Shown here: one piece after another, positions 2,471-45,441 of the stretch | How the letters are laid out: the number at the start of each line of letters is the position of its first letter | Position numbering within the stretch: position 1 is the stretch's first letter | Assembly: GCA_900552845.1 (NCBI GenBank) | Contig: USBC01000001.1 | Span: forward strand, 1-47,985 | DNA: 47,985 bases | Origin: an uncultured Oscillospiraceae bacterium | Lineage (GTDB): Bacteria; Bacillota; Clostridia; Oscillospirales; Ruminococcaceae | Direction: 5' to 3' | Program-made: the position numbers and the translations under genes | Notes under the pieces: model-generated | What the model saw: only the letters and a program-made list of their open reading frames with translations | What the model was told of the DNA's origin: nothing | Database searches by the model: none

Positions 2471-3220
2471 TTACCGGCGGCGCGCCACATATACCATTCG
2501 CTGTGTCTTGGGAGTAACCGGCTGTCGGTCATAGCCTCCCCAGCGCTCCAGTATCTCAAAATGCTCCGCTTCCAGCATGGCAGTCAGTTCATTATCCTCC
2601 CATGCATATTCACAAAACTGCTCCCCATCGCGGGTGTACTGCTCTCCCGTCTCATGCTGAAAGAAATCGATCTGTATTTCCACCTTATGCCCTTCTGAGC
2701 TGTATTCATTCTGCCATATGCAAAATAAAGCCTCGCTTTCGCGCACGAAGCAATTATTCCCCAGCACCTCACGGTGCTTATAAGGAGTATTTACATCAAA
2801 GAGAAATAGCCCTCCCGGCTCTACAAAGAATTGCAGCCGGTGCAATGCCTTTTGCAGCGCCCTGCTTCCGGAAAGATGGTTGAGACTATCCAAGGTACAG
2901 ACGGCAAGATCCACTGTACCATACAGGTCAAGCTGCTCCAACGGCTGACACAGGTACAGAACCGGCTGAGAAAGCGCTAAATTCTTCTCTGAAGCCTGCA
3001 TCAGCATTTCCGGCGATGCATCTACACCGATGACCTCAAAGCCTCTCTGCGCCAATTCTGTGGCAAGGATACCGGTACCGCAGCAGAGATCCAGTACCAG
3101 TTCCCGCTTGGGGTGGTACTTTGCCAACAGTTCCTCGCAGCGGTCAGCAATCTTTGCGCGATCTACATCGTCGGTCAAGGCATCATAAAAAGCGGAGAAG
3201 GTCTCCTTATAGCTTGCCAT
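2471..3220 (-). CDS. Class I SAM-dependent methyltransferase
   Basis: VLDLCCGTG motif I, GVDASPEML, LFLFDVNT. Start chosen at MASYKETF, overlapping the upstream gene's end. Confidence 0.88.
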   Translation of the reverse strand: MASYKETFSAFYDALTDDVDRAKIADRCEELLAKYHPKRELVLDLCCGTGILATELAQRGFEVIGVDASPEMLMQASEKNLALSQPVLYLCQPLEQLDLYGTVDLAVCTLDSLNHLSGSRALQKALHRLQFFVEPGGLFLFDVNTPYKHREVLGNNCFVRESEALFCIWQNEYSSEGHKVEIQIDFFQHETGEQYTRDGEQFCEYAWEDNELTAMLEAEHFEILERWGGYDRQPVTPKTQRMVYVARRR

Positions 3221-42502: not shown

Positions 42503-43855
42503 TTACACCAGACGGTCGGAGAGATACCACAAAGCAAAGTTGAAGTAGACCAGAATGGAGAAGGCATCGGTGATGGTGGTGATGAGCGGCGACGCCATGA
42601 TGGCAGGGTCGAGCTTCAAAATCTTTGCCAGAATGGGAAGAATGCAGCCCAGTGACTTTGCCATACAGATGGTGAGCAGCAGTGTGCCGGAAACCACCAG
42701 CGCCACCTGCGGATCGCGATACTGAATGATGATGCGGATAAAATTGACGGTGCACAGCGCCACGCTGCACAGCAGTGCAACTCTTATTTCCTTCCACCAT
42801 GCTTTGGTGAAGTCCTTGGGAGAAATCTCGTCCAGCGCAAGGCCACGAATGATCATGGTAGACGCCTGACTGCCGCAGTTACCGCCGGTATCCATGATCT
42901 GCGGGATAAAGGTAACCAAAAGCGGAATGCTGACAAACGCCGCCTCGTAGTATTCCAGCATGGCACCGGTGACCATTGCGGAGATCATCAGCACCATCAG
43001 CCAAATAATTCGGTGCTTTGCCAGTGTGATGACCGGTGTGCGAAGGTAGGTATCATCACTGGGGGTCATACCTGCCATCTTTTCAAAGTCTTCGGTGTTC
43101 TCGTCTTGAATGACATCGACGGCGTCATCGATGGTGATGATACCGACGATACGGTTTTCGCTATCCACGACCGGCATGGCAAGCATATCATACCGGCTGA
43201 ACATCTTGGCGATCTCCTCCTGATCGTCGTGGGTATGCACATGAATGGGGTTGGTGTCCATCAGGGTATCAATGATGGTCTCCGGTGCGGTGAGCAGCAT
43301 TTCCCGCACTGTAACAACGCCCAGAAGCTCCTTACGGGCAGAGGTGACATAGCAGGTATAGATCGTCTCTTTATCCACGCCGTGCTCTCTGATGATCTCG
43401 AATGCCTTGGCAACGGTGATGCCGCTGCGGAAATAGACATACTCATTGGTCATCAAGCTTCCGGCGGAATCCTCGGGGTACTTGAGATACTGATTGATCA
43501 GCTTACGGTTGGCGGGCGTTGTGTTCTGCATGACGCGCTTGACGACATTAGCGGGCATTTCCTCCACCAGATCCACATAGTCGTCCATAAACAGATCGTC
43601 CAGAATATGCTGAAGCTCGGTATCGGTAAGCGTGCGGACAATCTTTTCCTGAATTTCCGGCTCCATGTAGGAGAATACCTCTGCGGCAGTCTCCTTGGGC
43701 AGCAGACGGAACAGACGGTTGAACTGGTCGGCGTCCTCCTCATTTTCCAGCTCCTCAAAGAGCTTGGCGAGGTCGGCTTCCTCCATCTGACCGATAAGCT
43801 GCTTGACGGCGGAGTACTTTTTCTCCTCCAGCAGTTCCAAAATTTCTTCGTTCAT
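42503..43855 (-). CDS. mgtE: Magnesium transporter MgtE
   Basis: N domain, CBS pair (YPEDSAGSLMT, GIITIDD), TM motifs GGNCGSQ and DPAIMASPLITTITD. Confidence 0.97.
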   Translation of the reverse strand: MNEEILELLEEKKYSAVKQLIGQMEEADLAKLFEELENEEDADQFNRLFRLLPKETAAEVFSYMEPEIQEKIVRTLTDTELQHILDDLFMDDYVDLVEEMPANVVKRVMQNTTPANRKLINQYLKYPEDSAGSLMTNEYVYFRSGITVAKAFEIIREHGVDKETIYTCYVTSARKELLGVVTVREMLLTAPETIIDTLMDTNPIHVHTHDDQEEIAKMFSRYDMLAMPVVDSENRIVGIITIDDAVDVIQDENTEDFEKMAGMTPSDDTYLRTPVITLAKHRIIWLMVLMISAMVTGAMLEYYEAAFVSIPLLVTFIPQIMDTGGNCGSQASTMIIRGLALDEISPKDFTKAWWKEIRVALLCSVALCTVNFIRIIIQYRDPQVALVVSGTLLLTICMAKSLGCILPILAKILKLDPAIMASPLITTITDAFSILVYFNFALWYLSDRLV

Positions 43856-43867
43856 CGGCGAACCTCC

Positions 43868-43948
43868 TTATGCAGGCAGGGCGCCAAAAAACAACGCCGT
43901 GCCCGTTACTATGAATATGTTGCAACTGGGATACGGACCAGCGTCCAT
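43868..43948 (-). CDS. Putative 26-aa leader peptide upstream of mgtE (MDAGPYPSCNIFIVTGTALFFGALPA)
   Basis: AGGAGG 7 nt before ATG 43948; its TAA stop overlaps the mgtE RBS (TAAGGAGG). Confidence 0.6.
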   Translation of the reverse strand: MDAGPYPSCNIFIVTGTALFFGALPA

Positions 43949-44011
43949 TTCGGAACCTCCTTTTTGAACCAATTTGGGGGAGAACGGCATCTGCCTTATC
44001 CCTTAACAAAT

Positions 44012-44040
44012 ATTGTACTCGTTTTTGGTCTAAACCGCAA
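44012..44040 (-). promoter_or_regulatory. Putative sigma-A promoter of the mgtE leader
   Basis: TTGCGG-17 bp-TACAAT. Confidence 0.55.
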
Positions 44041-44100
44041 CCGCAAAAAAGAAATTTTCCCTGCAAAATTTGCAGGAGCCCAATTCTTATCGAGCGACCG

Positions 44101-44157
44101 CTTAAACAAATCTTAAGACGACGGCTGATTGTTTCTTAATGGGCAAAACGGTAGACT
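44101..44157 (+). promoter_or_regulatory. CTTAA direct repeats (OmpR-type boxes) and -10 element upstream of the GT2-TCS unit
   Basis: CTTAAA 44101, CTTAAG 44112, CTTAAT 44135, then TAGACT 44152-44157; no clear -35. Confidence 0.5.
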
Positions 44158-44199
44158 GATGATGTACCATGAAACCCCGAGCCTATGGAGGGAAAGACG

Positions 44200-45441
44200 A
44201 TGAAAGTTACCTTGGAAGCGATCAATCAGGCGATCGCAGCGCTGTTCTTTATCTGCTACGCCTATCAGTTTGTGTATATCCCCATCGCACTATTCAAGAA
44301 GAAAAAGCGGCTGCCTGCCGCGGCACCCCACCGTTATGCGGTGCTGATTGCCGCCCGCAACGAGGAAGCGGTCATCGGCGACCTATTGGACAGCCTGCAC
44401 CGGCAGGACTATGATATGTCGCTGGTGACGGTCTTTGTCATCGCCGATAACTGCACCGACCGCACCGCCGCCATTGCCGCCGAAAAGGGCGCCGTGGTTT
44501 ATACCCGGGAAAACCGCCGGCAGGTAGGCAAGGGCTATGCCTTGGAGGCACTGCTGGCGCATATCCGCTCTGACTACCCCGACGGCTATGACGCCTACCT
44601 TGTTTTTGACGCCGACAACCTGCTGGCGCCGGATTTCATTACCCGTATGAACGAAAGCTATGCCGCAGGCAATGAGATCATCACCTGCTACCGCAACAGC
44701 AAAAACTACGGCAGCAACTGGATCAGCGCCGGCTATGCCCTGTGGTTCCTGCGGGAAAGCCGCTACCTGAATGGGGCGCGGGAGGCGATCGGCAGCAGCT
44801 GTGCCGTTTCCGGCACCGGCTTTCTGTTCTCGCAGAAGATCTTAAATGAGTGCGGGGGGTGGAGCTTCCATCTGCTGGTGGAGGACATTGAATTTTCCAT
44901 TCACAATATCTTAAAGGGACACCGCATTGCCATCTGTGAGGACGCCGTTGTTTACGATGAGCAGCCCACCGATTTTGCACAGTCCTGCCGCCAGCGGCTG
45001 CGCTGGTCGCGCGGGTATTTGCAGGTCTTCGGCAAATATGGCACAGGGCTGCTTACCGGTGCTGCACGCGGGAAGTGGAGCTGCGTCGATATGGCTATGG
45101 CAATCATGCCCGCCATCATACTGACCTCCATCAGCATTCTGGTCAGTGTGGCGCTGTCGGTGCTGGGAATTTTGAGCGGCATGGGGCTGCTGCCCGCACT
45201 GGTTTCCTTGGGCAAGGCGCTGCTGAGCATGTACCTGATGCTGTTTGTCATCGGTGCAATCACCACCATCACCGAATGGAAAAAGATAGACGCCTCGGCG
45301 CTGCGCAAGGTGCTTTCGGTATTCACCTTTCCCCTGTTTATGTTTACCTATATTCCTATCAGCTTTGCGGCACTGTTTATTAAGGTGGAATGGAAGCCTA
45401 TCCGTCACAGCATTACCGTAAAGGAGCTGAGCAAGGGCTGA
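44200..45441 (+). CDS. Family 2 glycosyltransferase, membrane-bound, with D,D,D,QxxRW motif
   Basis: IAARNEE, ADNCTD, FDADN, VED, QRLRWSRG; N- and C-terminal TM helices. Confidence 0.9.
   Translation: MKVTLEAINQAIAALFFICYAYQFVYIPIALFKKKKRLPAAAPHRYAVLIAARNEEAVIGDLLDSLHRQDYDMSLVTVFVIADNCTDRTAAIAAEKGAVVYTRENRRQVGKGYALEALLAHIRSDYPDGYDAYLVFDADNLLAPDFITRMNESYAAGNEIITCYRNSKNYGSNWISAGYALWFLRESRYLNGAREAIGSSCAVSGTGFLFSQKILNECGGWSFHLLVEDIEFSIHNILKGHRIAICEDAVVYDEQPTDFAQSCRQRLRWSRGYLQVFGKYGTGLLTGAARGKWSCVDMAMAIMPAIILTSISILVSVALSVLGILSGMGLLPALVSLGKALLSMYLMLFVIGAITTITEWKKIDASALRKVLSVFTFPLFMFTYIPISFAALFIKVEWKPIRHSITVKELSKG

Follow-up and report, generated by a model that had tools for sequence, protein, structure and literature searches.

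In Firmicutes, the control of the magnesium channel gene mgtE belongs to the biology of the M-box (ykoK), an Mg2+ riboswitch. In the antibiotic-responsive ermC and cat leaders, a ribosome held within approximately the first 10 codons of a short leader ORF reshapes a hairpin near the Shine-Dalgarno (SD) sequence of the regulated gene, the SD being sequestered in a clear 1:2/3:4 scheme. A leader ORF also precedes the enterobacterial Mg2+ uptake gene mgtA: translation of this leader, MgtL, is described as aborting within MEPDPT, an effect that grows at low Mg2+, with an N-terminal position, D, E or P, and small residues favoring such Mg2+-sensitive abortion and bulky residues opposing it (10.1101/2021.02.02.429294). 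Further enterobacterial ORFs located before Mg2+ transport genes are MgtP and MgtM of mgtCBR and the corA leader (PMC3641672, PMC11552253). In Mycobacterium tuberculosis, the M-box-controlled uORF rv1805A is reported to lie between an M-box and Mg2+-related genes (PMC12810186), and the "mgtE motif" is an RNA restricted to Thioalkalivibrio (PMC11109978). Our literature search found no description of a Firmicute mgtE leader peptide; hence, the family presented below is apparently undescribed.

The window analyzed here is the whole of a 47,985-nt stretch of DNA from an uncultured Oscillospiraceae bacterium; except where stated otherwise, the features discussed lie on its minus strand. The gene proposed to be regulated is mgtE (42503..43855), which codes for a 450-residue protein with Pfam matches to MgtE_N, to CBS (two domains) and to the transmembrane domain of MgtE (E-values from 2.5e-36 to 1.7e-18). 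Upstream of it, an AGGAGG SD (43956..43961) is followed after a 7-nt spacer by the ATG (43948-43946) of a 26-codon ORF. The initial annotation had claimed precisely this arrangement, and it was confirmed on the minus strand. The complete leader ORF (uORF; 43868..43948) consists of 26 sense codons, MDAGPYPSCNIFIVTGTALFFGALPA, and a TAA stop (43870-43868), and its start lies 93 nt from that of mgtE. The claim that this stop forms part of the mgtE ribosome-binding site is equally borne out: TAA runs directly into GGAGG (43867-43863), which is separated by 7 nt from the mgtE ATG at 43855. The two initiation regions indeed have AGGAGGTTC in common, as had been pointed out. Prolines are found at codons 5, 7 and 25, ATA codons at positions 11 and 13, and the C-terminal half of the translated peptide is hydrophobic. 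All the Pro and ATA codons highlighted earlier are present, but neither the ATA codons nor Pro25 show conservation, and they were dropped as features. A 40-codon reading from an ATG at 43990 was also rejected, as it lacks a comparable SD and does not recur in relatives.

The gene upstream of mgtE, coding for a family-2 glycosyltransferase, starts at 44185 on the plus strand and is divergent; hence, the mgtE promoter and leader sit in the 330-nt spacer. A putative -35 element, TTGCGG (44035..44040), was picked out by conservation alone, and a putative -10 element, TACAAT (44012..44017), by the conserved GAGTACAAT. The combination TTGCGG-17 nt-TACAAT is kept in the same-genus loci L002 and L004-L007, with L008 showing TTGCCA-17 nt-TACAAT. 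A consensus promoter scan reported no site at this putative promoter, because its -35 matches the consensus at just three of six positions. The location of the candidate -10 would place the transcript start near 44005 and thus give a leader of about 150 nt. Five RNA runs contain small parts of the window; the reads of four of them fall only on pieces of mgtE and the neighboring gene, with none between 43716 and 44163. Just upstream of the putative promoter is a near-perfect palindrome, TCCTGCAAATTTTGCAGGG, with a T-rich run (44059-44077), which the scanner flagged as terminator-like. A similar but base-changed version occurs in L002, and it is absent in L004-L008; either an operator or a stray terminator is conceivable.

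Querying 61 related genomes with the MgtE protein recovered eight loci whose products are 79-100% identical; seven of these have the full leader, with the eighth (L003) being cut by a contig end. The uORF and its SD are kept in all seven, with 26 codons in six of them and 25 in L005, which has an in-frame deletion of 3 nt, and alignment shows that AAAAAGGAGG at the uORF SD is common to all of them. Pairwise comparison of the six 26-codon copies revealed 22 synonymous versus five non-synonymous differences in codons 2-10, as opposed to 18 synonymous versus 138 non-synonymous differences in codons 11-26. Therefore, selection acts at the peptide level on the N-terminus and not on the rest. Codons 1-10 (MDAGPYPSCN; 43919..43948) constitute the conserved, putative sensor part of the uORF. 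The fast-evolving codons 11-26 nevertheless retain the reading frame, a hairpin (see below) and the overlap of stop and SD, and the frame-0 stop is found at nt 78 (nt 75 in L005) in all nine clade leaders checked. Being kept in 7/7 leaders of the genus as well as in many distant genomes, the 26-codon uORF is more than a chance ORF, and we infer that it is translated.

This pattern of conservation bears directly on whether the uORF codes for a small protein acting in trans on MgtE, in the manner of MgtR, MgtS or MgtU. The initial annotation had raised an MgtS/MgtR-like membrane peptide as an alternative, and both the hydrophobic C-terminal half in the window and the position of the uORF next to a transporter gene would suit such a role. 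However, it is this very half that is least conserved, as the counts given above indicate: it varies in sequence and hydrophobicity, with L008 having KKAKRPVPSASLL, and in length, with the uORF ranging from 12 to 53 codons and its shortest relatives ending at codon 12. A MgtR/MgtS-like product is unlikely because the hydrophobic half is not conserved. A constitutive uORF that senses nothing is likewise at odds with the strong conservation of the eight N-terminal residues across loci whose MgtE proteins are just 53-65% identical. Accordingly, we regard a trans-acting small protein or a uORF without sensing as very unlikely explanations.

Beyond the genus, we scanned the contigs of species-representative genomes with a degenerate DNA pattern for M-D-A-G-P-Y-P in which all wobble positions were left free. 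This matched at least 120 stretches, 80 of which were listed, most of them being chance matches in unrelated phyla; 22 of the listed hits were selected for having either an SD with a short ORF or mgtE downstream. Among the matches listed, 20 of these 22 lie 90-165 nt upstream of mgtE, in 19 loci with MgtE proteins 53-99% identical to that of the window, and in 17 of the 20 the uORF starts 90-116 nt ahead of the mgtE start codon (six of the 20 had escaped the regular expression for the SD). The recorded hosts are Oscillospiraceae, Christensenellaceae/Christensenella, Clostridiales/Eubacteriales, Candidatus Alloruminococcus and an Angelakisella sp. MAG, the last (L162) having the MgtE that is 99% identical to the window's. 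Across 23 MDAGPYP leaders, Asp is encoded by GAC or GAT, Ala by three codons, Gly by four, each Pro by four and Tyr by both; thus, every wobble position of D, A, G, P, Y and P varies. Together with the seven genus leaders, this bears out the expectation that the ribosome-binding site and ATG would open a conserved frame with synonymous variation. Codon 8 is AGT in 22 of the 23, though it lay outside the scanned pattern. A version of the pattern extended by AGT gave 119 stretches in metagenomes, 80 of them listed; 72 of these 80 have mgtE within 400 nt and collapse to 20 distinct leaders. On one Oscillospiraceae contig (L135), mgtE occurs as a tandem pair, and a separate MDAGPYPS leader precedes each copy (1205-1350 and 2699-2848, minus strand). 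Two same-genus genomes have a cobalamin riboswitch lying a few kb away from their mgtE leader (L152, 5484-5660; L165, 6866-7044); these are unrelated to the leader.

The 3' half of the uORF forms a GC-rich hairpin of 13 pairs (43873..43905) that ends 2 nt before the TAA; its predicted energy is -19.3 kcal/mol (z -3.1), with one of 200 shuffles being as good. In an alignment of 10 leaders of the window's clade (eight distinct rows), 89.4% of the cells of the 13 pairs are paired, as against 34-53% when the 3' partner is slid, and five pairs have changed on both sides, a result matched by one of 500 shuffles. The hairpin therefore covaries; in L008 its arms are wholly different in sequence and still pair. 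An earlier RNAalifold run on mixed clades yielded a consensus of only nine pairs because of register shifts and was replaced by the clade-only alignment. A 5'-proximal stem-loop (43978..44002; -10.2 kcal/mol, z -1.9, a fold equaled by 12 of 200 shuffles) has, by eye, a counterpart of different sequence at the same position in the same-genus loci and may stabilize the mRNA. The 150-nt leader as a whole is not unusually structured (z -0.94), and the scanner flagged nothing terminator-like between the window's uORF and mgtE.

As in translationally coupled ORF pairs, where the upstream stop abuts or overlaps the downstream SD, the stop of the uORF in the window is fused to the mgtE SD as TAAGGAGG (43863..43870). 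This raises the prospect that mgtE translation depends mainly on ribosomes that complete the uORF, open the hairpin and start again 12 nt beyond the TAA, with the N-terminal motif gating throughput; mgtE expression would then fall if early elongation fails, or rise if stalling occurs only at high Mg2+. The invariance of TAAGGAGG in all 10 aligned clade leaders, the preservation of the frame through 16 fast-evolving codons, including the 3-nt deletion in L005, and the uORFs of L104, L108, L134 and L166, which end 1-5 nt before the mgtE SD, are all in line with such positive coupling. On the other hand, some MDAGPYPS leaders stop after 12 codons or 36-63 nt before mgtE; therefore, the position of the stop is not required family-wide. 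Moreover, mgtE has a strong SD of its own at ideal spacing, and positive coupling combined with an MgtL-like abortion would lower the importer just when Mg2+ is scarce. We hence consider positive coupling unlikely as the primary explanation.

To place these leaders in a wider setting, we collected mgtE upstream regions from the 60 best-scoring places of a search for MgtE across the window's order, in which 162 of 301 sampled genomes have an orthologue (E<=1e-80), and 30 from the search of related genomes. A uORF with an SD, an ATG, GTG or TTG start and the N-terminus M-D-[AVTSGP]-[GSACD] is present in 49 of 87 such regions (at least 300 nt each); the same search found none in the 87 reverse complements and a mean of 0.54 (maximum 2) in 50 mononucleotide shuffles. 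The common form is a sister type, MDAG-[GS]-S-x-G-T...G-R-[SR], which precedes mgtE across the order; this subfamily is larger than the MDAGPYPS one and is without proline. The 47 listed order-wide uORFs start with ATG (42), GTG (4) or TTG (1), and their codons 3 and 4 use all GCN and GGN codons. A strict DNA pattern for the sister type matched 54 of 301 genomes, versus four hits for the reversed pattern. Of 30 strict-pattern loci, 16 have mgtE directly downstream, and the other 14, mostly inside long ORFs, looked like chance hits. When extended to the phylum, the strict pattern matched five of 401 genomes versus four reversed-control hits; two of the five are real leaders located before mgtE: L242 belongs to a different order of the same class, and L244 to the same phylum but not to the class. 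Among the more divergent cases, L080 has a GTG-started M-D-P-Y-P-S-R-K... uORF without Ala-Gly 126 nt before mgtE and bridges both subtypes. L028, L029 and L030 code for distant MgtE paralogues (25-28% identical to the window's) and have SD-led MDGSS.. or MDGGSS.. uORFs 330-360 nt upstream.

We define the MDAG family by an SD at 6-12 nt from an ATG, GTG or TTG, an M-D-A-G N-terminus, and location on the same strand at most about 260 nt before mgtE and not before other genes. The uORF of the window displays the SD, start and motif, the linkage to mgtE and selection confined to the N-terminus; judged by its sequence, it is the MDAGPYPS variant of a large, mgtE-specific family of leader peptides in Clostridia.

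The sister type also shows constraints at the level of nucleotides. Its stretch from the SD to codon 4 pairs with a downstream arm inside the uORF: the native combination averages -23.8 kcal/mol versus -18.9 kcal/mol for non-native ones, with the native arm being in the top tenth in 20 of 37 cases. By a crude finder, 12 of 40 sister-type leaders have a T-run following either this helix or a hairpin further on, as against terminator-like hairpins in none of the seven genus leaders. CGA makes up 37 of 77 Arg codons in the sister type versus one of 18 in the window's mgtE, and AGY 110 of 123 Ser codons versus eight of 20. In 31 of 40 leaders CGA encodes the first Arg, with AGN coming next in 22 (e.g., L047, L052, L033 and L040). 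This bias possibly comes from slow wobble decoding or from RNA contacts. Both the preference for the native arm and the fixation of nucleotides, including the AGT at codon 8 of the MDAGPYP leaders, might be expected of a structured, riboswitch-like RNA with an incidental open frame. Such an RNA would, however, not account for the three-period variation, in which codons 2-7 sample every synonymous wobble base but stay fixed at positions 1 and 2, or for the correctly spaced SD and the use of ATG, GTG or TTG as starts; it also has no match in Rfam. We therefore hold it to be highly improbable, though the near-invariant CGA and AGY of the sister type do point to codon- or RNA-level constraints outside the model proposed below.

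The statement that the leader lacks a recognizable M-box holds up: a scan of 43500-44500 on the minus strand matched no Rfam family at E<=10. The M-box model (RF00380) also found nothing in the window's assembly (81.6% complete), while matching the Bacillus subtilis and Lactococcus lactis controls, and it found none in the 19 genomic MDAGPYPS loci, each covered for up to 8 kb. In the sampled genomes of this major gut order, we detected the M-box in 11 of 78 related loci scanned, compared with the leader uORF in the 49 of 87 upstream regions noted above. Three of these 11 loci have the M-box alone; in the other eight (L041, L047, L049, L052, L054, L057, L059 and L010), a complete M-box, an MDAG-type uORF and mgtE follow one another in series. 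Since tandem elements often read different signals, the latter loci raise the alternative that the leader provides a second input to mgtE by sensing something other than Mg2+, such as another cation, a polyamine, general translation capacity or a compound that targets the ribosome. In keeping with this, the 8-15 conserved residues at the N-terminus are nearer to short arrest peptides than to codon-counting attenuators. Yet the strict-pattern loci link the uORF to mgtE only, and in most genomes it occupies the place that the M-box has in relatives. A non-Mg2+ signal thus appears quite unlikely to us.

Taken as a whole, the best explanation we can offer is that the uORF is a translated, cis-acting leader peptide with the ribosome on its first 8-10 codons as the sensor, a reading that we give an even chance of being right. 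That the uORF has some regulatory role is likely; that Mg2+ is the signal falls just short of an even chance. Under this model, the ribosome reading codons 1-8 or 1-10 would act as the sensor, with the remaining frame carrying no peptide information and merely taking the ribosome through the hairpin to a stop on the mgtE SD. At low Mg2+, early elongation over Asp, small residues and Pro would be slowed or aborted, following the MgtL/IRD precedent, and fewer ribosomes would get as far as the stop fused to the SD. A ribosome that dwells on codons 2-9 would also block the pairing of that stretch with the 5' arm of the hairpin; the hairpin could then form and keep its pyrimidine-rich 3' arm, CCCUGCCU, off the SD, thereby allowing mgtE initiation. 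With ample Mg2+, ribosomes would traverse the whole frame, open the hairpin and cover the SD, leaving mgtE expression low. This direction, with slow early elongation raising mgtE, is put forward tentatively, and we would lean against it if pressed: a stop overlapping an SD usually signifies positive coupling, and the direction would therefore reverse.

Folding predictions give the model a mixed reception. When nt 9-37 are masked as a stand-in for a paused ribosome, the predicted accessibility of the mgtE start region rises in five of six genus leaders. Across clades, ribosome-masking simulations revealed no consistent on/off switch: the SD-proximal hairpin forms in every simulated scenario in several of them, L008 goes the opposite way, and the predicted sequestration of the SD in the window is weak. 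In the window, codons 2-6 can form 13 bp with the 5' arm of the hairpin (-20.9 kcal/mol); across leaders, the native pairing at -19.9 kcal/mol is no better than the non-native at -18.7 kcal/mol, only three of 20 are in the top tenth, and the covariation test for this pairing was negative.

The N-terminus of the uORF combines D2, P5 and P7 with small A, G and S residues; given a single acidic residue, the bulky Tyr and the non-adjacent prolines, MDAGPYPS is not a textbook IRD or EF-P motif. Both MDAGPYPS and MDAGGSSGT match the description of MgtL/IRD abortion only loosely. One N-terminal motif is coupled to several outputs, namely the stop/SD overlap of the window's clade, hairpins that contain the mgtE SD in other MDAGPYPS clades (e.g., CUGCCC...GGGCAG) and terminator-like structures, which suggests a modular sensor with exchangeable expression platforms. 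In its widest form, our proposal is that a ribosome-based Mg2+ sensor arose in gut Clostridia independently of MgtL. An N-terminus of Asp with small residues or Pro, read via wobble codons that are slow to decode (AGU in the window, CGA-AGN in the sister type), would make the first 10-15 elongation steps dependent on Mg2+ and act through interchangeable platforms (terminator, SD hairpin or stop/SD overlap), replacing the M-box in most of the lineages examined and backing it up in others. We find this possible but on balance doubtful. If the peptide is the sensor, ribosome-based control of Mg2+ uptake would have been invented a second time, independently, and with a short, defined motif amenable to direct tests in vitro. 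Moreover, functional ORFs of 12-50 codons such as these are absent from public protein sets, to judge from an exact look-up of seven leader peptides, none of which occurs among 15 billion public protein sequences.

How, then, does this leader relate to the described systems? It differs from trp-type attenuators in that no terminator-like site lies before mgtE in the window, the frame contains no run of codons for a sensed amino acid, and the gene downstream is not one for amino acids. It also differs from MgtR, MgtS and MgtU in lacking a conserved hydrophobic helix, with its C-terminal half varying in sequence, charge and length. The MgtP/MgtM and corA leaders use transcription attenuation and have different peptides. 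With the rv1805A locus, the related loci share the tandem of an M-box and a conserved small ORF; there, however, the ORF is a regulated product with a paralogue elsewhere, while here the N-terminus alone is conserved and most loci are without an M-box. The M-box (RF00380) itself likewise controls mgtE in Firmicutes and takes the same leader position in the 11 related loci; in contrast, the element described here is a coding frame that stands in tandem with an M-box in eight loci, with no M-box match in the window, its assembly or the 19 MDAGPYPS loci.

The comparison with MgtL, which the initial annotation had taken as its model, holds in part. On the side of likeness, both are short leader ORFs before a Mg2+ uptake gene, with the information residing in the first residues, acidic ones and Pro. 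A conserved, mgtE-specific uORF with an acidic, Pro- and small-residue-containing N-terminus and no M-box speaks for MgtL-like control; kinship with MgtL in sequence or architecture did not materialize. The sequences are unrelated, the spacing of the prolines differs and the sister type has none, the target is the MgtE channel and not a P-type ATPase, and the host belongs to a Gram-positive-type Clostridia lineage. The window also has no evident terminator or Rho-type leader, and the stop of its uORF is instead fused to the SD of the regulated gene. The broader idea behind that comparison, a translation-based control element, is well supported by the comparative evidence from the leaders. In its layout, the locus resembles the ermC and cat attenuators: although its SD sequestration is weak in the window and its gene is a Mg2+ channel, it shares with them a short, SD-led leader ORF and, farther along, a hairpin close to the regulated gene's SD.
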